Positions 1-10,816 of a DNA stretch of 64,000 nucleotides are shown here, piece by piece; within the stretch, counting starts at the first letter, position 1; each line of letters begins with the position of its first letter. Below the pieces are notes generated by a model. It made no database searches. It had not been told where the DNA came from and saw only the letters and a program-made list of their open reading frames with translations. Location of the stretch: NCBI GenBank assembly GCA_963801165.1, contig CAWDDT010000007.1, forward strand, positions 64,001 through 128,000. Reading direction: 5' to 3'. Source of the stretch: an uncultured bacterium. GTDB lineage: Bacteria; Actinomycetota; Acidimicrobiia; Spongiisociales; UBA5794. Position numbers and translations under genes: made by a program.

Positions 1-290
1 TCGCCGGGGTCTCACAGAAAACCGGGTCGCTGACGCCGGGCAAGCGTGGCGACGTCATCGTGCTACGAACCGATCGGCCCAACATTGCCCCCATCAACGA
101 CCCGATCGGCGCAGTCGTGTGGGGGATGGACACCTCCAACATCGATTATGTGTTCGTCGCCGGTCGAGGCCTTGTTCGCGAGGGTTCGCTGACCGCCGAC
201 GTGGCTCGAGCCCGGGACCTGGCGGCACAGGCACAGGCCGAGGTGATGGCCGCCGCGGGGCTCCTGAGCACGGCGGTGAAGCCGTCATGA
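1..290 (+). CDS. Amidohydrolase family protein, C-terminal part (5' truncated by window edge)
   Basis: Frame open from position 3; GSLTPGKRGDVIVL...NIDYVFVAG is the typical amidohydrolase C-terminal signature; TGA overlaps the next ATG (ATGA 287-290). Confidence 0.85.
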   Translation, partial: AGVSQKTGSLTPGKRGDVIVLRTDRPNIAPINDPIGAVVWGMDTSNIDYVFVAGRGLVREGSLTADVARARDLAAQAQAEVMAAAGLLSTAVKPS

Positions 291-1339
291 CCACCCGGAA
301 GACGACATCCTCGGCCGTGACCTCGTTCGTGGTCGCGTCGCGCTACATGCCGGTCTTCGTGGCTCTACTTCTGCTCATCGTTGTCGCGGCGATCTGGGTG
401 CCGGAGACTCTGGGCGCAGTCCCCCTGGCGGCCATCGCACCGTTCGGAGCGTTGCTCGGGATCACCGCACTCGGTCAGATGCAGGTAGTCATGACCGGCG
501 GGATAGACCTGAGCACCCCTGGCACCCTGACTCTGGCGGCGATGATCATGGTCGGCGTCGGGGATGGATCCGACGACCGCATCTGGATTGCCGCGTTTAC
601 CGCAATCGCCGTCGCTGCCTTGATCGGACTGGTGAACGGCATCCTCATCGGCGGCATCAAGCTCAATCCGCTCATCGTCACTCTCGCCGTCGGTCAGGTC
701 GTCGCCGGGATGGTCAGCCGCTACGTACGCACATTCCCGATTCAAAGCGCGGTCCCGAAGGGGCTTTCCGATTGGACCGCCAAGCGGATCCTCGGCGTCA
801 GCCCGATCTTCTGGATCGGCATCGTTGTCGCCCTGCTTCTCATGGTCGGCCTGCGCTACACCACCGCGGGGCGCCGGTTCAAGCTCGTGGGAGCGAACCC
901 CGTGTCGTCGCAGGTGGTCGGAGTACGGGTGACGTTGACGCAGATCCTCGTCTACGTGGTGGCGTCAATGTTCTATGCGATTGCCGGCATTGCTCTCGCC
1001 GGTCTCATCCGCAACCCGGGCGTCAACATCGGGTCGCCCTATCTGCTCGGTCCGATCGCGGCCGTTGTCATCGGCGGCGCTTCCCTGACCGGTGGTCTGG
1101 CCAGCCCGGTGTCCACGATGGTCGCCGCCTTCTTCCTCACAGGTCTCAATCAGATGATGCGCTCGCTAGGGCTGGCGACTGCGCTCCAGTTCGTTGTATT
1201 CGGTCTCGTGATCATCGGCGGCATGTTGCTGTCCGGAGATCGGATCATCCGGGGCGTGGAGCAGGTTCTGCGGGAGCGCCGCAAGCCCGACAGCGAGGGC
1301 AAGGGACAGACAGCGATGGCGACGAGTGAGCCGGGTTGA
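287..1339 (+). CDS. Sugar-type ABC transporter permease (RbsC-like)
   Basis: Multiple TM segments, TGGIDLS and IAAVVIGGASLTGG motifs; start at the ATGA overlap rather than 119. Confidence 0.92.
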   Translation: MTTRKTTSSAVTSFVVASRYMPVFVALLLLIVVAAIWVPETLGAVPLAAIAPFGALLGITALGQMQVVMTGGIDLSTPGTLTLAAMIMVGVGDGSDDRIWIAAFTAIAVAALIGLVNGILIGGIKLNPLIVTLAVGQVVAGMVSRYVRTFPIQSAVPKGLSDWTAKRILGVSPIFWIGIVVALLLMVGLRYTTAGRRFKLVGANPVSSQVVGVRVTLTQILVYVVASMFYAIAGIALAGLIRNPGVNIGSPYLLGPIAAVVIGGASLTGGLASPVSTMVAAFFLTGLNQMMRSLGLATALQFVVFGLVIIGGMLLSGDRIIRGVEQVLRERRKPDSEGKGQTAMATSEPG

Positions 1340-1394
1340 CCGCGAGGTCGAGCGGGAACACGAAGCGCGTTTTGGCAACCAGGAGGAGGAGAGA

Positions 1395-2789
1395 ATGAGA
1401 CTGAGCAAGATCGTCGGCCTGATCGCAGTGCTTGCGATGGTGGCCGCCGCGTGCGGGGGCGACTCCGGCAGTACGACGACGACGACGGCAGGTGCCGCCG
1501 AGACAACGACGACTACAGCCGCGGCGACGACAACAACCGGAGCGACCGCGACAACCGAGGCTACGACGACGGCGGCGCCGGGGGGCGACAACCCGCTGGC
1601 CATGTACGGCGAAGATCCCACGGCAGCAGACCCGGCGCTGGTCCTCAAGGCGCTAGGCCCCGTCGACCCATCGGACGAAGCCAGCTGGAACATCATCCTG
1701 GCTTCCATAGCTCGCGCCAACCAGAACCTCGACGAAGCCACCATTACCAAGGCGATGGACTGCTGGCGCAACCAGGAGTGCGACACCGGAAGTGGCGGCG
1801 ACCTGGTGATGGGCTACGCCGACGGCGGCGGTGACACCGTCAACGTGTGGCGCGGTGTTAGCCACATGGAGGCAATCCTCCAGGCACTCAGCTATCCGGA
1901 AATCGGGACAATCGTGTCAACGGCGGCCAACTTCGATCAGGACCCGGCAGTGCACGCCAACGACATCCGCTTCCTGATCCAGCGTGGTGTCGACTTCATC
2001 GTCGGATACCCCGATGTTGGTGTTGCTCTTGCGCAGGCAGTCTCCGAAGCGGAGGCGGCAGGCATCCCGTACCTCTCCTTCTCGGCCGGCTATGTGGGCT
2101 TGCCGGGTCAGGAGGGTGCGCTCGTTCCCGGTCAGGATTACACCTCGGTGGTTGGTGAGGATCTCTGCGCCCTCGGGAAGAGCTTCGCCGACGTGCTGAA
2201 CCAGGGAGTCGGTACAGGTAAGGTCGGCATGCTCGGTGGGACACCCGGCAATGCCCTGACGCTCGGCTGGCAGCAGTGTGCGGTGGCGGCCCTTGCGCCT
2301 GGTGTCGACCTGGTCAACCCACCCGCAGACACAAACTCGACAACAGGCGACACATACTGGGTCAACTCGTTTGCGCTCGACGCGGTGCGGGGCCTGCTGA
2401 CGACCAACCCCGACATCAAGGGCTGGGCGTACGAGTACTCGGATGGCCTCTACACCGCCCTCCAGGCGTACGACGAGTTGAACATCCCGGTGGCGAACCT
2501 GACGGTGGCGCTGCGTACGGACGAGCAGACCCTGTTCTGCGACTGGGCGGATCGCAACGAACCGACGTACAACATCTGGTACTCGGCCGGTGGCAACTTC
2601 CAGTCCCGCACTGCGGTGACCGCCGCCATGCTGGCGCTCCAGGGCGCTGAGGTCCCAGGTCAGATCATCGTGCCCCACGTGATGAGACAGGTCACCAAGT
2701 CGGACTGCAACCCGGATCGGGTCAACGCGGTCGTGTCGGGGACCTCGCTCGTGCCCGACGCCGTGCTGCAGCAGATGTTCGGCGGCTGA
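1395..2789 (+). CDS. ABC transporter substrate-binding lipoprotein (periplasmic binding protein type 1)
   Basis: AGGAGGAG RBS before ATG 1395; lipobox VAAA-C; Thr/Ala-rich linker; lies between permease and ATPase. Confidence 0.88.
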   Translation: MRLSKIVGLIAVLAMVAAACGGDSGSTTTTTAGAAETTTTTAAATTTTGATATTEATTTAAPGGDNPLAMYGEDPTAADPALVLKALGPVDPSDEASWNIILASIARANQNLDEATITKAMDCWRNQECDTGSGGDLVMGYADGGGDTVNVWRGVSHMEAILQALSYPEIGTIVSTAANFDQDPAVHANDIRFLIQRGVDFIVGYPDVGVALAQAVSEAEAAGIPYLSFSAGYVGLPGQEGALVPGQDYTSVVGEDLCALGKSFADVLNQGVGTGKVGMLGGTPGNALTLGWQQCAVAALAPGVDLVNPPADTNSTTGDTYWVNSFALDAVRGLLTTNPDIKGWAYEYSDGLYTALQAYDELNIPVANLTVALRTDEQTLFCDWADRNEPTYNIWYSAGGNFQSRTAVTAAMLALQGAEVPGQIIVPHVMRQVTKSDCNPDRVNAVVSGTSLVPDAVLQQMFGG

Positions 2790-2815: not shown

Positions 2816-4381
2816 ATGGACCATGAGCTAGTTCTCGAGATGCAGGGCGTGTCTCGCCAGTTCGGGGCGGTGCGAGCGCTGACGAACGTCAGCTTCGAGT
2901 GCCGCGCCGGTGAGATACATGCGCTGGTTGGTGAGAACGGCTCGGGGAAATCGACGCTCCTCGGGGTTGCTTCAGGATTCGTAGACCCCGACCTGGGCAC
3001 GGTGTCGATCGGGGGCAACCGGCTGCGGCGGGACTCTCCCGCCATGGCCCGCAAGCTCGGTCTGGCGATGGCCTATCAGGACGGCTCGTCCGTCCACGCC
3101 GAGCCGGTCAAGAACAACTTGTATTACGCCGCGCGTCCGGCCCAGCGGCCGCCGTACTGGCGCAGGAAGAAGTGGGCGCGCCGGGTGCTGGCGGAGTTTG
3201 ACCTGGACCTCGAGCTCTTCCCCGACGCGCCTGCCGGTTTCTTGACGCTGGCCGAGCGCCAGCTCTTCGAGGTAGCGAAGGCACTCGTGACCCATCCCAG
3301 GGTGCTGCTCCTCGACGAGCCGACGACGGCCCTTGGACCCGATGAGGTCGAGGCCCTGCACCGCACCGTGGTCGCCTGCCGGGACCGGGGTGTCGGTGTG
3401 GTGTATGTCAGCCACCGGCTGCCCGAGGTGCTCGAGGTCGCAGACCGGGTGACCGTCCTCCGCGACGGGACGCATCAGGGGACGTTCGACGCCAGGACGA
3501 CGAGCGAATCGGAGCTCGTGGAGCGAATCGTCGGGCGTCCTTTCGATGCGGCCTTCCCACCCCCGGCAACGTCACCGGACGATGGCGAGGAAGTGTTCGT
3601 CGTCGACGCCCTGCAAGGGCAGTCGTTCGGCCCGGTCAGCTTTACGCTGCGCCGGGGCGAGATAGTGGGGATCGCCGGCGCCGAAGGCAACGGCCAGCCG
3701 CAGCTCTTCGACTGTCTCGCCGGTCGGGTTCCTCCCCGTACCGGGCGCGTTGTATGCGACGGCAAGGAGCTGACGCTCATCTCTACCCACGAAGCGGTCG
3801 GTGCGGGGGTCATGCTGCTGCCGGGAAATCGCAAGCAGGAGGCCCTGATGGGAGTCCTCGGGGTGAAGGCGAACATCACGATCCAGTCACTAAAGAAGTT
3901 CTCACGGTTCGGCCTGCTGCGAAGGCGGGCGGAGCGGGTCGCGGTCAAACGGCTCGTGGATGAGATGGAGATCAGAACCCCGTCGCTCGACCAGCCGGTC
4001 GAGTTTCTCTCCGGCGGCAACCAGCAGAAGGTGTCGGTGGCCCGCTCGTTCCTCAGAGAGCCTGCGGTGATCCTGGCTTACGAGCCGACCCAGGGGGTCG
4101 ACGTTGGATCGCGCTTCGATATCTACAAGGCGCTGCGAGCCCGGGGGGACGCCGGGGCCGCCCTGCTCGTCAAGTCCAGCGACCCGATCGAGCTCTCGGG
4201 GCTGTGCAACCGCGTTCTGGTCATGTCACGGGGCACAATCATCGAGGAGATTCCCGGCGACGAGCTCGATGAGGTGCGCATTGTCGAGGCGATCGTGCGC
4301 GGTCCGGGAATGTCGAAGGCGGCCCGGTCGCCGCTGGGCGTTGCCATGCCCAAGGCCCCGATCCGCAAAGAGGCATCATGA
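2816..4381 (+). CDS. Sugar ABC transporter ATP-binding protein (RbsA-like, two NBDs)
   Basis: GENGSGKS Walker A, LLLDEPT, VSHRL, LSGGNQQK in second NBD; GGAGGAG RBS. Confidence 0.95.
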   Translation: MDHELVLEMQGVSRQFGAVRALTNVSFECRAGEIHALVGENGSGKSTLLGVASGFVDPDLGTVSIGGNRLRRDSPAMARKLGLAMAYQDGSSVHAEPVKNNLYYAARPAQRPPYWRRKKWARRVLAEFDLDLELFPDAPAGFLTLAERQLFEVAKALVTHPRVLLLDEPTTALGPDEVEALHRTVVACRDRGVGVVYVSHRLPEVLEVADRVTVLRDGTHQGTFDARTTSESELVERIVGRPFDAAFPPPATSPDDGEEVFVVDALQGQSFGPVSFTLRRGEIVGIAGAEGNGQPQLFDCLAGRVPPRTGRVVCDGKELTLISTHEAVGAGVMLLPGNRKQEALMGVLGVKANITIQSLKKFSRFGLLRRRAERVAVKRLVDEMEIRTPSLDQPVEFLSGGNQQKVSVARSFLREPAVILAYEPTQGVDVGSRFDIYKALRARGDAGAALLVKSSDPIELSGLCNRVLVMSRGTIIEEIPGDELDEVRIVEAIVRGPGMSKAARSPLGVAMPKAPIRKEAS

Positions 4382-6846
4382 CCGCCGAGATGCGAGCCAC
4401 CGGCATCGACCGGATACGTCAGCTCGGCCGCAAGCTGGTGCGCAACGCCCGTGACAAGAACAAGTGGCGCAAAGTAGTCAAGGTCCGGCTCTGGATGCCG
4501 GTCGTGCTCCAGATCTTGTTGATCATGGCCCTCCTCTGGTACACCAGCACCCGCTTCAACGGGTTCATCAATCAGGCGAACATCCTCAACATCCTGCTGC
4601 TGGCAATGCCGCTCTCCCTGGCCGCGATCGCCCAGACCCATGCGATTCTGGTCGGATACCTCGACCTGTCGGTCGGTGCGATGATCAGCTTCGGGGTCGT
4701 TGCCGGCTCCTTCCTCATGGGCGCCGACGCGTCGGCAGGCCAGATCGCTCTCGCGATCCCGGTCATCCTCGGCTGCGGTGTCGGTCTCGGTCTGGTCAAC
4801 GCCGGTCTGATTCGTGGGTTCAGGATCCCGTCGTTGATTGCAACTCTCGCCACGTTGAGCATTCTCGACGGGATCTCGCTGACGCTGCGACCTTCCGCAC
4901 AAGGGGTCATCAGCGGCGACCTGGTTTCCGTTCTCACCAAGCGCATTGGACCGATCCCCATCGCCTTCGTCGTCATCGTCGTCGGTGCCGTGCTTCTCGA
5001 CGTTTGGCTGCATGCCTCGGGGTCCGGGCTTGCGGTGCGGGCGGTCGGATTCGACGAGCGGGCGGCCAAGCGGGGCGGGATACCCACAAACTGGATTCGG
5101 GTGCGGGCGCTGATTCTCTCCAGCCTGCTGGCGGCCGTCGCTGCGTTCTTCGTGATGGCTAGATCGCCGATCGGTAATCCCCAGATCGGCTCTCCCTTCG
5201 CGTTGAACAGCATCACCGCAGCCGTTCTCGGCGGTGCATCGCTGGCGGGAGGCCGGGCGACATTCGTCGGCAGTACGGTCGCCTCCATTTTGCTCGCCTT
5301 GATCATCTCTGTGCTGCCGTTCCTGGGCCTGTCTCCGGACGACGGCTCGATGATCATCGGTCTGCTCGTGCTGATCGGGATCGTGCTCTTCCAGGTCGGG
5401 GATCTCAAAGAGTTGGTCAAGCGCAACTTCAGGCGAGCCCGCCGGCTTGTTCTCGGCAGCGGGGTCGTCGACAAGACGGAGATCCCGGCGTTCTACCCGC
5501 AGGGGACAGACTTCGCGGTTGTCCCCACCGGCCGGAAGTTGATCAAGAACGGCATCATCTTGACTCTGGATCAGACCATTGGAGATCTCCTCCCCGGGGA
5601 TGTCCTCATCGAGGATGACCGAATCGTCCGGGTGGCCCCGGAGATCGCCGTCGATGGCGCCGAGGTCATCGATGCCACCGGGATGATCGTGATGCCGGGC
5701 TTCATCGATACTCATCGCCACATCTGGGAGGGTCTGCTGCGCAACCTCGGCACCGATGTTCCGCTGGAGGGGAGGACGAGCTACATATCGTTCGTTCTCC
5801 ACAAGCTGGCGCCTGCCTTCCGTCCGGAGGACGCCTATGTGGGCGACCTCGTGTCGGCTCTCGGTGCTATCGATGCCGGGGTCACGACGTTGCTCGACTG
5901 GTCGCACATCCAGGGGTCACCGGCTCACACCGATGCAGTCGTCCAGGCGTTGAACGACTCCGGGATGCGTGCCGTCTTCGCCTATGGCTTTCCTTGGTGG
6001 GGCAAGTGGGAGGAGCGCCAGCCGAGCTGGTTCGTCCGCGCCGCCACCGAGCACTTCTCGACGCAGGACCAGAAGCTGTCGCTCGCCCTGGCGGCTCCCG
6101 GTCCCGAGTTCACGGACTTCGAAGTATCCCGGGACCATTGGAAACTGGCGAGAGAGACAGGCGCCAGGATCACCACCCACGTCGGGGTGGGCAGCTACGG
6201 ACTGGACTCAAAGGTGCAGGAGATGGGCGAAGCCGGCTTGCTCGGTCCCGACACGACTTACATCCACTGCACGACCCTCAACGACACCGAGATCCAGATG
6301 ATCGTCGATACCGGGGGGACCGTCTCGCTTGCTTCGCCGGTGGAGATGATGATGGGTCATGGCATGCCGCCGATCCAGAAGTTCCTCGATCGCGGCCTTC
6401 ATCCCAGCCTCAGCGTCGATGTCGAGACAAACGTGCCCTCCGACATGTTCAATCAGATGCGCTCGGTGCTCGGTTTGCAGAGGAACCTGGCCGCGGCGAG
6501 CGGGCGGGATCCGATCTCGGCCCGCGACGTGCTGTCCTACGCGACCATCGAGGGCGCCCGGGCCACCGGGCTCGATGCCAAGGTGGGAACCCTGACGCCG
6601 GGCAAGAAGGCCGACCTCATCCTGTTGCGGACCGACCGGATGAACGTCACTCCGCTCAACGACCCGGTGACCTCAGTTGTGCTCGGCATGGACACGGGCA
6701 ACGTCGACACCGTGATCATCGACGGCAGGATCATGAAACGCAGCGGGAAGCTGCTGCACGTCAACTGGCCGGCGCTGCGACGCCAGATCGACGAGTCACG
6801 AGATCATGTGATCGCCAAGTCGGGTTTCCGTCTCCCGAAGATCTGA
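4378..6846 (+). CDS. Fusion: RbsC-like ABC permease (N-term, about 340 aa) + metal-dependent amidohydrolase (C-term, about 440 aa)
   Basis: GYLDLSVG and AAVLGGASLAGG permease motifs, then in the same frame without a stop KLIKNGIILTLD, PGFIDTHRH (HxH), YIHCT, SVD, GTLTPGKKADL. Confidence 0.88.
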   Translation: MTAEMRATGIDRIRQLGRKLVRNARDKNKWRKVVKVRLWMPVVLQILLIMALLWYTSTRFNGFINQANILNILLLAMPLSLAAIAQTHAILVGYLDLSVGAMISFGVVAGSFLMGADASAGQIALAIPVILGCGVGLGLVNAGLIRGFRIPSLIATLATLSILDGISLTLRPSAQGVISGDLVSVLTKRIGPIPIAFVVIVVGAVLLDVWLHASGSGLAVRAVGFDERAAKRGGIPTNWIRVRALILSSLLAAVAAFFVMARSPIGNPQIGSPFALNSITAAVLGGASLAGGRATFVGSTVASILLALIISVLPFLGLSPDDGSMIIGLLVLIGIVLFQVGDLKELVKRNFRRARRLVLGSGVVDKTEIPAFYPQGTDFAVVPTGRKLIKNGIILTLDQTIGDLLPGDVLIEDDRIVRVAPEIAVDGAEVIDATGMIVMPGFIDTHRHIWEGLLRNLGTDVPLEGRTSYISFVLHKLAPAFRPEDAYVGDLVSALGAIDAGVTTLLDWSHIQGSPAHTDAVVQALNDSGMRAVFAYGFPWWGKWEERQPSWFVRAATEHFSTQDQKLSLALAAPGPEFTDFEVSRDHWKLARETGARITTHVGVGSYGLDSKVQEMGEAGLLGPDTTYIHCTTLNDTEIQMIVDTGGTVSLASPVEMMMGHGMPPIQKFLDRGLHPSLSVDVETNVPSDMFNQMRSVLGLQRNLAAASGRDPISARDVLSYATIEGARATGLDAKVGTLTPGKKADLILLRTDRMNVTPLNDPVTSVVLGMDTGNVDTVIIDGRIMKRSGKLLHVNWPALRRQIDESRDHVIAKSGFRLPKI

Positions 6847-6853
6847 GCTCGCC

Positions 6854-8035
6854 TTACGGTATCTCCCCGGCGAACTGGATCATCCCCCACTCACCATCGG
6901 TCAGCCACGTGGGGTCGGTGGCCAGGGCGTCCCGCGCCACCGCGGGGGCGACGCCGGCCGCAACCAGGGACTTGGCCGCACGCACCGCCAGCAGCGGCTG
7001 GAGCGGACGCACGATCTTCTCGAATGGTGTCGTCGGGTCCCAATGGAGGTCGCCGAGCAGCCTCCTGTAGTTGGCGTCACCCTTGACGATGACCAGGTCG
7101 GCCTCCGCCAGGTAGTCGACGAGGTCGGGTGGGCACTCCCAGAAAGGCAGAGGGGACACCCAGAAAGGATGCGTCGTGACAACTAGAGACCCGTTGCCCC
7201 GGCTCTTGGTGAGGATCCCGGCAACCTCGGACGCCGGTGCCGGCTCGGTGGCGAGACGGGCAATCGTCGCTTCGAAATCGGGGAGTGTCACATCCGATAC
7301 GAACGTCGGGTGCGGTTTGAGGTGGATGGTCACCCGGCCGCCGCGGCCGAGGACATGTGCCGTAACCATGAGGTCGGCAACCAGCTCGGCGCCGGCATTG
7401 TCGAGAATCAGGTGCACGGAGTTGGAACCTTCGCCGAGCAGCTCGACGGCGCGATCTGTGTCGTCCGCCAGGAGCCGTTCCGAGCGGTTCAATCCGAGGA
7501 TGTCGGCTGTCCGAGCCGCCGCTTCGCGCTCACCGGCCGGCCACAGGCTGAGATCCACGCGGTTGGCCCACAGTGAAGCTGCGAGCAAGATCGGAAGCTC
7601 GTCGACCACATGCCCGAGCCGCCCGCCGAGGGGAACGGCGCCATCGAGCCCGATCGCCTTCTGAGCGGTGAACGGGTCGACACCCTCACGGTCGCCCGGC
7701 TGCGAGTACCCCGTTGCTGCCAGCAGCCGCCGGTAGAAGTACGTCTCGGCGAAGAACCACGGGATGTCGCGCCAGGTCATACCCAAATACGGTGCGACGT
7801 ACTCCTTCCAGGCGGCGGCGTCGGAGAGGAGCGGCTCGTCGATCTCTGCGACGACGCCCTCGTGTATCTCGGCCACGAGCGCTTCGACGAGGCTGGTCCG
7901 TGTGGCGTCGAGCTCGTTCTCGGCGAGGGTCCGGCGTGCGATGTCGGGGAGCCTGCGCATGACGGACTCTTCAGTGAACGTACCGATCTCGTTGGCTCGA
8001 AGCGAAGCTGGTCGCGGGTGCTTTGGTGGGATCAT
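6854..8035 (-). CDS. Damage-control phosphatase ARMT1/DUF89 family
   Basis: PWFFAETYFYRR, SLWANRVDLS, LDNAGAEL, FVSD, KGDANYRRL motifs; start at ATG 8035 inferred. Confidence 0.88.
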   Translation of the reverse strand: MIPPKHPRPASLRANEIGTFTEESVMRRLPDIARRTLAENELDATRTSLVEALVAEIHEGVVAEIDEPLLSDAAAWKEYVAPYLGMTWRDIPWFFAETYFYRRLLAATGYSQPGDREGVDPFTAQKAIGLDGAVPLGGRLGHVVDELPILLAASLWANRVDLSLWPAGEREAAARTADILGLNRSERLLADDTDRAVELLGEGSNSVHLILDNAGAELVADLMVTAHVLGRGGRVTIHLKPHPTFVSDVTLPDFEATIARLATEPAPASEVAGILTKSRGNGSLVVTTHPFWVSPLPFWECPPDLVDYLAEADLVIVKGDANYRRLLGDLHWDPTTPFEKIVRPLQPLLAVRAAKSLVAAGVAPAVARDALATDPTWLTDGEWGMIQFAGEIP

Positions 8036-8154
8036 CGGCTTTCTCTTGGTCTTTGAGGGGCTGAACGATAACGCCACGAGAAGGGGCCACCTCCGCGGCT
8101 GGCCAGTCTCACGTCGGTAAGATGCCGCTCCGCGGTACGGGGACAGATGGCCAT

Positions 8155-9009
8155 ATGCCAACCGAGAACACCGAGGTCATTGCCCTCGAGAAGGTGTCGG
8201 TGGTCCGTGATGGCCACTACCTGCTGCGGGCCGTCGATTGGTGTGTCGCTCGTCATGAGCGCTGGGTCGTGCTCGGGCCAAACGGTGCAGGCAAGACAAC
8301 CATGCTCCAGGTGGCCTCGACGTACCTCGGCCCAACCCACGGCACGGTCCGGTTGCTCGGCAACGTGTACGGCAGAGTGGACGCACGAGCCCTCCGGGAG
8401 CGAATCGGCTATGCAGGGGCAGGTCCCGCAGGGCTCGTCAGGCCGGACCTGCGCACTCTCGATGTCGTTGTGACCGGTCGCCACGCATCGTTTGTTCCGA
8501 CCCGCTTTCACACCTACACAGATGACGACTGGCGCACCGCCCGGAACAACCTGGGTCGGCTCGCCGCAGGCCACCTCACCGACCGCCGATTCGGAACGCT
8601 GTCGTCGGGCGAGCGGCAGCGGGTGTTGATCGCCAGGAGCTTGATGACCCGGCCTGAGGTGCTGTTTCTCGACGAGGCCATGACCGGGCTGGACCTCGGG
8701 GCACGGGAGAGGCTGGTGGGCTCGCTTGCGGACCTGGCCGCCGACCCGGTCAGCCCCGCCGTGGTGTTGGTGACCCATCACGTCGAGGAGATCCCGCCGG
8801 GTTTCGGATACGTCTTGCTGATGAGAAACGGCAGCGTGGTCGTGTCGGGGCCGGTCGACGATGTGCTCACGGCAGACAGTCTGAGCGAGTGTTTCGAGCA
8901 GCCATTGCTCGTTGAGCGTCGCGATCGCCGCTACCACGCCTGGTCGAAGAATCGGCCGCAGGTGGTAGAGCCACCCGCGGCCGACGGAGGGGGACCCTCT
9001 TACTCGTGA
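8155..9009 (+). CDS. Stand-alone ABC ATP-binding protein (ModF-like)
   Basis: GPNGAGKT, LSSGERQR, LFLDE, VTHHVEEIPPG. Confidence 0.88.
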   Translation: MPTENTEVIALEKVSVVRDGHYLLRAVDWCVARHERWVVLGPNGAGKTTMLQVASTYLGPTHGTVRLLGNVYGRVDARALRERIGYAGAGPAGLVRPDLRTLDVVVTGRHASFVPTRFHTYTDDDWRTARNNLGRLAAGHLTDRRFGTLSSGERQRVLIARSLMTRPEVLFLDEAMTGLDLGARERLVGSLADLAADPVSPAVVLVTHHVEEIPPGFGYVLLMRNGSVVVSGPVDDVLTADSLSECFEQPLLVERRDRRYHAWSKNRPQVVEPPAADGGGPSYS

Positions 9010-9950
9010 GCCTTCACATGGTCTCTGATCACATCGGCCACGTGCGCCGGTGCCAGCCCGTACTTTTCGAGCAGTGCCTCATCCGGGCCCGACTCGCCGA
9101 AGATGTCGGAGATGCCGTGGATCTTCATCGGCAGTGGTGATTGCTGGGATAGCGTCTCAGCGATGGCACCGCCGAGGCCACCCACGACGGTGCCTTCCTC
9201 GGTTGTGACGACGAGACCGGTTCTCTGGGCGGCGGCAACGATCTCACCCACGTCCAGGGGTTTGATCGTCGGGACGTGTACCAGGTGCACGTCGATGCCT
9301 TCGTCGGCGAGGATCTCGGCGGCAGTGAGCGCCCGGGCCGTGTGCGTCCCCGTTGAGAACACGGTGACGTCCGAGCCCTCACGCATCGTTACGGTCTTGC
9401 CGATCACGAACTCGTAGTCGTCCGGAAGGATGATCGGGCTGTTGGGGCGGGTGAGCCTGTAGTAGATGGGGCCGTCGTACTCGAGGCCGGCGTTGATGGC
9501 CGCCCTCGTCTCGATCTCGTCGCCCGGGGCGATAACGGTCATGTACGCCATCGCCCGCATGATCGAAACATCGTCGAACAGGAGGTGGGTCTTGCCCGTG
9601 CTGCCGGCAAGCAGACCGGCGTAGCCGGCCATGATCTTGACGTTGGCCTTGGGCTGGGCGATGAGGACCCTGATGGCGTCGTGGGCTCGAGAGACCACGA
9701 AGGCCGAGAAGGTGCTCACGATCGGGATGAGCCCGACGGTGGCCATGCCGGCTGCCATACCGAACATGTTCATCTCGGCGATGCCAACCTGGAAGAAGCG
9801 GTCGCGGTGCGCCGCCTCGAAGATATCGGTGCGGGTCGAGCTCCCGGTGTCCCCGTCGAGAACGACGATGCGGTCGTTGGTGTTGGCGGCCTCGCTGATT
9901 GTCTCGCCCATTGTGACCCGGAGCGACTTGCCCATCGTGCGCGTTGTCAT
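9000..9950 (-). CDS. Split transketolase, C-terminal subunit (pyrimidine-binding + C-terminal domains)
   Basis: GIAEMNMFGMAAGMA, IKPLD, GGLGGAIAE, FGESG; ATG overlaps the stop of the upstream subunit. Confidence 0.92.
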   Translation of the reverse strand: MTTRTMGKSLRVTMGETISEAANTNDRIVVLDGDTGSSTRTDIFEAAHRDRFFQVGIAEMNMFGMAAGMATVGLIPIVSTFSAFVVSRAHDAIRVLIAQPKANVKIMAGYAGLLAGSTGKTHLLFDDVSIMRAMAYMTVIAPGDEIETRAAINAGLEYDGPIYYRLTRPNSPIILPDDYEFVIGKTVTMREGSDVTVFSTGTHTARALTAAEILADEGIDVHLVHVPTIKPLDVGEIVAAAQRTGLVVTTEEGTVVGGLGGAIAETLSQQSPLPMKIHGISDIFGESGPDEALLEKYGLAPAHVADVIRDHVKAHE

Positions 9951-10816
9951 GCCGCACCTCCTTCGGGTTCGCCGAGTTCTTTCATCGCCGCCGCCATTTG
10001 CTCGTCGCTTGGCACCTTGCTGTGCCATTCCGGCCGGTTCTCCATGAAGGAGACGCCCTTGCCCTTGACGGTGTGGGCGATGATGGCCACAGGCTCTCCG
10101 GTGACCGCCTTGGCCTCCTCGAGGGCCGCGAGGATCGCCGGGACGTCGTGCCCGTCGATCTCGATGACATTCCAGTCGAAGGCCCGCCACCGGTCGGCCA
10201 ACTGGTCGCCCAGATAGGGGCTGATCCGCTCGTCGAGTGTCTCACCCGTCCAGCCGAACTGCTGGAGCTTGTTGTGGTCGACGAGGGCGACGATGTTGTC
10301 GAGACCGTATCGAGCGGCCACGTGGGCACCTTCCCAGACGACGCCTTCGTTGCATTCCCCGTCGCCGAGCATGACGTACGTCGTGAAGTCCTTGTGCGCT
10401 GCCCGGGCGCCCAGCGCGATACCGAGCGAGCCGGCAAAGCCGAGCCCGAGCGACCCCGATGACATGTCGACGCCGGGGGTCACCGTCTGATCCGGATGCC
10501 CTTGGAGGCGGGAGTTCACCGCATCGAATGTCTTCAGCTCATCGACCGGGAAATAGCCGCGGAGGGCGAGCGTCGAGTAGAGGGCAATCGAGCTGTGCCC
10601 CTTCGACAAGACGAAGCGGTCCCGATCGGGATCCGCCGGATTCTCGGGATCCACATTCATCACACCGAAATACAGTGTGGCCAGCATGTCCGCCGCCGAC
10701 AGTGGGCCGCCGACATGGCCCGCACCGGCATGGCGCACGGCCTTGAGGATCTCTACCCGGATCTGGCGGGCGTATTCCGCCAGCTCAGCCGGGGTATAGG
10801 TCAGCGTTTGGGTCAT
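9947..10816 (-). CDS. Split transketolase, N-terminal (ThDP-binding) subunit
   Basis: GHVGGPLS, DRFVLSKGH, LQGHP, GDGECNEG ThDP motif, TVKGKG; GGAGGAG RBS. Confidence 0.93.
   Translation of the reverse strand: MTQTLTYTPAELAEYARQIRVEILKAVRHAGAGHVGGPLSAADMLATLYFGVMNVDPENPADPDRDRFVLSKGHSSIALYSTLALRGYFPVDELKTFDAVNSRLQGHPDQTVTPGVDMSSGSLGLGFAGSLGIALGARAAHKDFTTYVMLGDGECNEGVVWEGAHVAARYGLDNIVALVDHNKLQQFGWTGETLDERISPYLGDQLADRWRAFDWNVIEIDGHDVPAILAALEEAKAVTGEPVAIIAHTVKGKGVSFMENRPEWHSKVPSDEQMAAAMKELGEPEGGAA

Follow-up and report, generated by a model that had tools for sequence, protein, structure and literature searches.

A CUT2-type importer permease carrying a tethered amidohydrolase domain in uncultured Acidimicrobiia and Anaerolineae

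We analysed a 64,000-nucleotide stretch of DNA from an uncultured bacterium of the class Acidimicrobiia (positions 64,001 to 128,000 of contig CAWDDT010000007.1, hereafter called the window), at the start of which lies an operon for an ATP-binding cassette (ABC) importer. Its genes follow one another in a conserved order: a free amidohydrolase (AH) paralog, a first permease (perm1), a solute-binding protein (SBP), an ABC ATPase, and a second permease (perm2) whose reading frame continues into an AH domain (Table 1). This last gene is a single ATG-started open reading frame of 822 codons (window 4378-6846, plus strand) without an internal stop, and its ATG overlaps, at positions 4378-4381, the stop codon that ends the ATPase gene. 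Here we describe the permease-amidohydrolase fusion, its conservation, the residues and the predicted partner of the tethered enzyme, and how uptake and hydrolysis might be coupled.

The fused gene and its conservation

In the fused protein, Pfam placed BPD_transp_2 at residues 68-333 (E 3e-24, 85.9 bits for a cut-off of 26.8) and Amidohydro_1 at residues 437-785 (E 1e-31), and the NCBIfam model NF006056 (PRK08204) covered residues 386-815 with 507.1 bits against a cut-off of 391, from model position 4 to 444 of 449. An earlier note on this DNA, made from the letters alone, had described one 822-residue frame with a permease, a short linker and a complete amidohydrolase from about position 5533; the NCBIfam match begins at the same place, as residue 386 corresponds to nucleotide 5533. 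The motifs named in the same note are present as DTHRH (444-448), THVG (600-603), IHC (629-631) and SVD (679-681), and inspection of the junction DNA found neither a stop nor an ATG, as it had stated.

Table 1. Positions in the window of the importer genes and of the parts and key residues of the fused protein. NBD, nucleotide-binding domain; TM, transmembrane helix.
Feature	Window position	Strand	Basis or remark
Free AH paralog, 3' end (last 96 codons)	1..290	+	gene begins at G000:C7:62980; 436 residues
Permease 1 (BPD_transp_2), partner of the fused permease	287..1339	+	Pfam, E 1e-25
Solute-binding lipoprotein	1392..2789	+	lipobox AAAC, Thr/Ala-rich tether, ribose-binding-protein-like fold
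Tandem-NBD ABC ATPase	2816..4381	+	AraG/XylG/RbsA-like but below their cut-offs
Permease part of the fused gene, residues 1-358: basic N-tail and 10-helix CUT2 permease domain	4378..5451	+	Pfam, AlphaFold2 model
Predicted coupling helices of the fused permease, residues 215-232; TM10 reaches into the cytoplasm up to residue 358			AlphaFold2 model
Linker, residues 359-385 (27 residues)	5452..5532	+	model and alignment
ATZ/TRZ-like AH domain, complete, residues 386-822 plus stop	5533..6846	+	NF006056, fold
HxH metal ligands His446-Arg-His448	5713..5721	+	alignment
Strand-5 His601 followed by V-G-V; Val604 at the position of the deaminase HxxE Glu	6178..6189	+	alignment
Strand-6 His630	6265..6267	+	alignment
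Glu656 in the loop after strand 7 (SPVEMMMGHG), family-specific acidic residue	6343..6345	+	in predicted dimer interface
Strand-8 Asp681	6418..6420	+	alignment

To view the two parts together, we modelled the whole fused protein with AlphaFold2 from a 95-row alignment, obtaining a mean predicted local distance difference test score (pLDDT) of 89.3. The model presents the permease as ten helices and the linker (359-385) without secondary structure; pLDDT is about 52-73 in the ten-residue blocks across residues 351-380 and mostly at least 90 in the AH domain (386-815). Despite both domains being confident, the predicted TM-score (pTM) of the whole fusion is 0.63, and the mutual orientation of the domains is unfixed. 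The linker is also the least conserved segment, with a major-residue frequency of 0.57 compared with 0.76 for the permease and 0.84 for the AH domain. Its length is identical in all 26 Acidimicrobiia-type rows (group A, below) of the alignment used (A1), and an [IL]P-x-[FLV]-Y motif occurs in the linkers of both fused groups, A and B. Twelve Lys/Arg residues lie in the N-tail and 11 in residues 344-400, mostly right behind TM10. From the ten helices and the positive-inside rule, both termini, and hence the AH enzyme, are predicted to be cytoplasmic. No solved structure was similar to the fused permease by sequence at an E-value of 0.001 or better, and the Foldseek list for the whole fusion model was occupied by AH matches.

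We compared positions 4300-6900 with Logan contigs from four public runs, belonging to four studies of salt-marsh and soil metagenomes, one of the runs being possibly the window's own source. Contig X1 record 1 spans 4300-5771 with one substitution and no gaps, X2 record 9 is identical to the window over 5401-6000, and X4 record 16 spans 5446-6152; no insertion or deletion was listed within 4300-6900 in any of the four runs. Among the listed runs that contain this stretch, none was an RNA data set. A check of domain architecture found BPD_transp_2 and Amidohydro_1 together in all 120 best listed homologues (78-100% identity, 813-825 residues). Among 80 related loci taken from species-representative genomes, the alignment runs unbroken from residue 20 or before to residue 819 or beyond in 69, while nine are truncated at a contig end and two begin at residue 71 or 100. 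None of the 80 shows a break of frame at the junction. When 41 related genomes were searched whole, nine contained an uninterrupted fusion, either full or cut by the contig, and two an interrupted one. Likewise, all 45 metagenome loci with a permease immediately 5' of an AH keep the same frame across the two without a stop. The earlier note had named a stop or indel at the junction, or homologues all encoded as two genes, as evidence that would speak against the fusion; the contigs were free of indels, and the related loci were fused in frame.

The apparently split forms were few. In genome G005 the frame changes within the linker, with further frame changes in the neighbouring genes of that region, and in G030 it changes inside the AH domain, past its first strand. 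Permease-only gene calls (at least 365 residues long and at least 59% identical) continue past the permease, into either the linker or the AH domain, and end at varying points, equivalent to residues 357-449 of P0001, where the tail either goes out of frame or reaches the end of the contig. Judged from their sequences, these few 'split' forms are frameshifted fusions, and no locus that we looked at showed a conserved two-gene arrangement of perm2 followed by AH. We therefore rejected both an assembly artefact and a split gene on the basis of the indel-free contigs over the junction, the in-frame junctions of the 80 genome and 45 metagenome loci, and the frameshifted tails. These observations confirm that the fusion is real and conserved and is not an artefact.

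The fusion is found beyond the Acidimicrobiia. Scanning metagenome contigs with the standalone-looking relative P0181 as query returned 78 loci in three groups. Group A is fused and Acidimicrobiia-type, with AH domains 75-83% identical to that of the window. Group B is also fused in frame, with AH domains 67-72% and permeases 46-57% identical and a different linker sequence; exact look-up identified it with Anaerolineae/Anaerolineales metagenome-assembled genomes (MAGs), as exemplified by an 828-residue protein on a 1.96-Mb contig. Group C consists of standalone AHs that are 59-64% identical. A quick maximum-likelihood tree built from 64 AH sequences placed the fused rows of group A (14) and group B (12) in a single clade with an SH-aLRT branch support of 99, and group C and the remoter standalone AHs fell outside it. 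The apparently unfused P0181 and P0164 are also inside the fused clade, and P0164 is near-identical to a fused group-B protein. The 150 best hits among representatives at 50% identity included one full-length fusion and three junction-spanning fragments, the remainder being standalone AHs of at most 56% identity, or fragments. The simplest reading of these sequence relationships is a single fusion event, the product of which would now occur in two phyla, those of the Acidimicrobiia and of the Anaerolineae.

Two other relatives of the permease were encountered as side observations. P0406 (447 residues, on a contig of 1663 nt) reads from a permease into an alpha-amylase-family sequence (PF00128) and is probably a chimeric short contig, and P0388 (1265 residues) contains a related permease at residues 928-1239.

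The tethered enzyme and its free paralog

The fused AH has the features by which the mononuclear ATZ/TRZ/deaminase group is recognized, namely the HxH motif, the His residues of strands 5 and 6, the Asp of strand 8 and a (beta/alpha)8 barrel. The nearest folds were those of AtzA, TrzN, 8-oxoguanine/isocytosine deaminases, methylthioadenosine/S-adenosylhomocysteine (MTA/SAH) deaminase and TM0936, with target TM-scores (TMt) of 0.83-0.91 at 19-25% identity; AtzA (4v1x) matched with E 8e-26 and TMt 0.83, and 3hpa with TMt 0.89. A search of the ESM Atlas with the AH domain returned generic amidohydrolase clusters only. We aligned the fused AH and the paralog with 127 standalone representatives of the family (n = 129). 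The two His residues of HxH are present in 128 and 129 of these sequences, the strand-6 His in 128 and the strand-8 Asp in 125, and the strand-5 position is occupied by His in 111 and by Asp in 16.

The nucleobase, nucleoside and triazine deaminases and dechlorinases carry an HxxE motif on strand 5, the Glu of which is their proton shuttle and catalytic Glu. The fused AH lacks this feature: where 3hpa and 4f0r have the Glu, it has Val604, and we rejected the assignment of the domain as a deaminase for this reason. The earlier note, having seen HVGV in place of HxxE, had doubted a standard nucleobase deamination. The doubt is borne out by Val604, but the peculiarity is wider than the fused protein, because Glu occurs at this position in only 3 of the 129 aligned sequences; the loss of HxxE is, as far as the alignment goes, a family trait that includes the standalone enzymes. 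A second acidic position is located in the loop after strand 7, where residue 656 is Glu in 110 and Asp in 14 sequences (n = 129) and where the deaminases have Ser-Asn. The NF006056-like family therefore appears to have relocated its acidic residue. The complete set of HxH, both His, Glu and Asp was found in 35 of 36 fused proteins. Compared with the structurally known ATZ/TRZ amidohydrolases and deaminases, AtzA (4v1x), TrzN (3ls9), 7ww2 (an 8-oxoguanine/isocytosine deaminase), 4f0r (an MTA/SAH deaminase), TM0936 (1p1m) and 3hpa, the fused AH shares the fold and the remaining metal-site residues, and differs from the deaminases in having Val604 for the HxxE Glu and Glu656 for Ser-Asn. NF006056 is named merely 'hypothetical protein' by NCBI, and the 150 best hits include no fewer than 127 clusters (50% identity) of the family around it.

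The free paralog at the head of the operon, whose stop overlaps the perm1 start (ATGA), is 41% identical to the fused AH and scores 357.8 bits with NF006056, under the cut-off of 391. Elsewhere in the genome there is no second close copy: two more AH matches turned up, at 28-29% identity. All 42 paralogs that we aligned retain HxH and the strand-5 His. The strand-8 Asp is replaced by Gly in 14 rows, including the copy in this genome, the strand-6 His is lost in eight, and the Glu has become Gly in nine and Gln in one. Counting a change from Glu to Asp as kept, 21 of the 42 paralogs lack at least one of these three residues. On the paralog tree the losses require 10 changes, at least four of which are forced by well-supported branches, and the four Anaerolineae-type paralogs are all intact. 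From this pattern of residue loss we infer that the free paralog is a non-catalytic partner in many Acidimicrobiia. A catalytically inactive subunit with the amidohydrolase fold is known from the aspartate transcarbamoylase of Pseudomonas, the dihydroorotase-like PyrC'. There, too, the catalytic residues are lost and the protein is kept, possibly as a structural partner; unlike PyrC', the protein described here is paralogous to the tethered enzyme that it is predicted to bind, and its degeneration is confined to 21 of 42 sampled lineages. An 820-residue frame that seemingly joins a paralog to perm1 (L080:2564-5026) was rejected as a second fusion: its junction and tail are out of frame, from which we attribute the frame to indel errors in an error-prone long-contig MAG.

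We predicted the complex of the AH domain (residues 381-822, alignment A1) with the paralog (alignment A2) in three runs, accompanied by three controls. The interface score ipSAE was 0.95 in all three runs and 0.00 in the best of the three controls; according to the predictor, this mark is reached by 116 of 157 solved complexes and by 2 of 215 mismatched pairs, counts that are only approximate for user-made alignments such as ours. The models contained 241-263 contacts, agreed between runs to at least 97%, and had a partner pLDDT of 91. On the fused domain the predicted interface consists of the Glu656 loop (653-663) and residues 753-774, and on the paralog of residues 259-268 and 365-386, the latter being the most invariant stretch of the paralog. 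Of the interface positions of the paralog, 38% are invariant compared with 10% elsewhere, and none of 5000 random position sets was as conserved on average. The prediction is in favour of a dimer, in which the tethered enzyme would have the paralog as a plausible and partly non-catalytic partner.

Probable coupling of uptake to hydrolysis and the competing readings

The other genes of the operon agree with an importer of the carbohydrate uptake transporter 2 (CUT2) type, having BPD_transp_2 permeases of about ten TM helices, a single ATPase with two NBDs and an SBP of the ribose-binding-protein type. The ATPase has two ABC_tran stretches in 521 residues and resembles AraG, XylG and RbsA along its full length at NCBIfam scores below the cut-offs. 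The SBP matched Peripla_BP_4 with 61.8 bits (cut-off 35.1) and, by sequence, PDB entries weakly (E 1e-5), and no NCBIfam model matched it; its AlphaFold2 model (pLDDT 85.6, pTM 0.83) had RbsB 7e7m as the best Foldseek match (E 2e-14, TMt 0.85). The lipobox of the SBP is followed by a tether of approximately 45 low-complexity residues rich in Thr and Ala (about 18-62; window 1392-1640) with pLDDT below 50, which caused a spurious Pfam 'New_glue' hit. Among 46 loci with the full upstream flank, the paralog is present in 44, perm1, the SBP and the ATPase in 45 each, and perm2 in all 46. The known CUT2 importers (TC 3.A.1.2: RbsABC, AraFGH, XylFGH, LsrACDB, YtfQRT-YjfF), whose solutes are monosaccharides, polyols, nucleosides or AI-2-like molecules, share BPD_transp_2 permeases, a two-NBD ATPase and a ribose-binding-protein-like SBP, and Lsr and Ytf have two different permeases, as here. 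In contrast to these importers, one permease here bears a 437-residue C-terminal enzyme; the SBP, a lipoprotein having a Thr/Ala-rich tether, exceeds RbsB by about 100 residues; and all scores are far under the cut-offs of the named CUT2 equivalogs.

We favour, with moderate confidence, the reading that permease 2 of a CUT2-type importer bears a tethered, complete and catalytically equipped mononuclear-metal AH of the ATZ/TRZ (COG0402-like) group that acts near the exit and is paired with the free paralog. The SBP would deliver a sugar-like or nitrogen-containing compound, the ATPase would power its import via perm1 and perm2, and near the exit the imported compound, or the first product made from it, would be hydrolysed by the tethered AH in a probable pair with the paralog. 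The reaction might be a C-N or similar hydrolysis in which Glu656 of the strand-7 loop substitutes for the HxxE Glu of the deaminases, and the enzyme would be a dimer whose second subunit is the paralog from the operon head. The coupling would be one of proximity or metabolic trapping and not of a sealed channel, because the linker seems flexible and the ATPase would take up the space beneath the permeases; hydrolysis near the exit would then raise the efficiency of capture or stop leakage. Uptake and first breakdown are probably physically coupled in this importer. The earlier note had proposed that the substrate is hydrolysed at the cytoplasmic face of the transporter, by channelling or trapping. 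The cytoplasmic location is supported by a complete enzyme that is predicted to lie in the cytoplasm, whereas the low pLDDT of the linker and the pTM of 0.63 fit a flexible tether better than the fixed conduit that channelling would imply.

Several points weigh against a coupled, paralog-paired enzyme. The poorly conserved linker and the low pTM of the model give no sign of a closed channel, and a tandem-NBD ATPase would occupy the underside of the permease, leaving the enzyme a place only beside it. Standalone relatives at 59-66% identity are found in related clusters with no adjoining transporter, so the chemistry does not need tethering, and some of the frameshifted forms could be genuine splits, in which case the covalent link would be dispensable. 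As for the pairing, related enzymes form homodimers in solved structures (AtzA, TrzN), and the high score may reflect this likeness; moreover, the predicted interface overlaps the conserved active-site core, which could by itself raise its conservation.

A reasonable alternative, though one that we consider rather doubtful, is that the loss of a stop passively joined perm2 to an AH gene and that the product was kept as harmless, or for a 1:1 stoichiometry and membrane location, without kinetic coupling. The stop/start overlaps at the paralog/perm1 and ATPase/perm2 junctions, the disordered and poorly conserved linker, the standalone relatives in similar clusters without a transporter next to them and the occurrence of frameshifted forms are all compatible with such an origin. 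However, the join has been kept across two phyla and at the junctions of 80 plus 45 loci, the linker has a constant length in the 26 Acidimicrobiia-type rows, and a conserved two-gene arrangement of perm2 and AH was seen in no locus.

It is unlikely, in our estimation, that the tethered AH dimerises with itself, bridging two transporters, and that the paralog is a soluble pathway enzyme, either redundant or acting in the next step. The solved relatives are homo-oligomeric according to their entry titles (hexameric AtzA), half of the paralogs (21 of 42) retain the full catalytic set, and the complex predictor also passes close cousins of a true partner. This explanation accounts poorly for the repeated loss of catalytic residues in the other 21 paralogs with retention of the predicted interface, and for the presence of the paralog alongside the fusion in 44 of 46 loci. 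Equally speculative is a stronger version of the coupled reading, in which the importer would be a true transport metabolon with a heterodimeric hydrolase made of the catalytic fused domain and a paralog that is a pseudoenzyme in many lineages. The pseudoenzyme, keeping its metal-binding His residues and its interface, would sense substrate or product or dock the pair beneath the transporter, and import and hydrolysis would be coupled mechanically or allosterically, as an ABC analogue of group translocation; we regard this as improbable.

We give very little credence to the AH domain being a ligand-sensing regulatory appendage that gates the transporter without turnover. Cytoplasmic C-terminal appendages of ABC importers are usually regulatory, as are the C-terminal domains of MalK, MetN and ModC, and the canonical HxxE Glu is missing from the fused AH. 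Such a role is at odds with the full residue set (HxH, the two His, Glu656 and Asp681) kept by 35 of 36 fused proteins and with the attachment of the domain to the permease rather than to the ATPase, and the missing HxxE Glu is shared by the whole family, standalone enzymes included. Finally, the genome is metagenome-assembled (13 contigs), but a lost stop or an indel that merged two genes during assembly or sequencing is next to inconceivable in view of the indel-free contigs over the junction from several runs and studies and the hundreds of independent fused sequences.

Binding-protein-dependent ABC importers are commonly presented as serving uptake alone, their appendages being regulatory. 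Fusions or metabolons of transporters and enzymes occur elsewhere, as in the C39-peptidase ABC exporters (PCAT1), SulP-carbonic anhydrase, LplT-Aas, group translocation by the phosphotransferase system (PTS) and trapping by PnuC/NadR. In these a transporter is joined to an enzyme acting on its cargo, as we propose here; in the present case the carrier is an ABC importer permease and the enzyme a catabolic AH. A full-text literature search, judged from the listings and the openings of abstracts, returned no description of a fusion between an importer permease and a catabolic AH, or of PRK08204; automatic annotations already show both domains in homologues. The fusion described here is a natural, widely conserved permease carrying a catabolic enzyme, and it offers a ready system for asking whether tethering the first enzyme improves the capture of scarce substrates, prevents leakage or toxicity, or exerts feedback on transport. 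It further draws attention to a large and unnamed family of amidohydrolases that, from its alignment, seems to have moved its catalytic acid, and it points to a nitrogen-containing or sugar-like compound taken up by abundant uncultured Acidimicrobiia and Anaerolineae of soil and salt marsh. The paralog, with its repeated degeneration, may exemplify an enzyme on its way to becoming a structural subunit.

Genes around the importer module

The neighbours of the module were counted in the same 46 loci. A divergent PuuR-like helix-turn-helix-cupin regulator lies upstream in 23 of them. A DddP/creatinase-like M24 enzyme is present in 16, a bicupin in eight, a short-chain dehydrogenase/reductase (SDR) in eight and an enzyme like 3-hydroxyisobutyrate dehydrogenase in seven; M24, bicupin, SDR and 3-hydroxyisobutyrate-dehydrogenase-like enzymes are also found beside the group-C AHs and beside a standalone copy of 66% identity (G018). 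Of the genes that stand beside the copy in this genome, LhgO adjoins the module in one of the 46 loci, and the fused E1 alpha-beta protein and the ARMT1-like gene in none. We rejected a substrate derived from the M24 neighbour, because its best score, with DddP, was 116 bits for a cut-off of 600; no NCBIfam model matched the bicupin, and no pathway could be named from the neighbours in these 46 loci.

In L094 (G018:C2), L143 and L145, a standalone AH that is 64-66% identical to the fused domain stands back to back with an M24 enzyme, distant from any transporter, and the M24 enzymes of these loci are 78-82% identical to the one in this genome. The pair of AH and M24 may be the core of a pathway.

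A single frame just upstream of the window (G000:C7:60872-62983; L011:10872-12983) encodes a 703-residue protein in which E1 alpha (E1_dh) and E1 beta (Transket_pyr and Transketolase_C) of a 2-oxoacid dehydrogenase are combined. The matches to its halves fall in different frames in G005, and the fused E1 protein adjoins the module in L147 and L171. Downstream, a homologue of the ARMT1-like damage-control phosphatases (window 6854-8161, minus strand; Pfam E 1e-55) is convergent with the fusion gene; an ARMT1-like gene stands beside the module in none of 62 loci with the downstream flank. It is followed by a single-NBD ABC ATPase (8122-9009, plus strand) with scores resembling those of F420-0, corrinoid and heme importers, all below the cut-offs, whose gene overlaps the end of a gene for the C-terminal half of a transketolase (9000-10190, minus strand).

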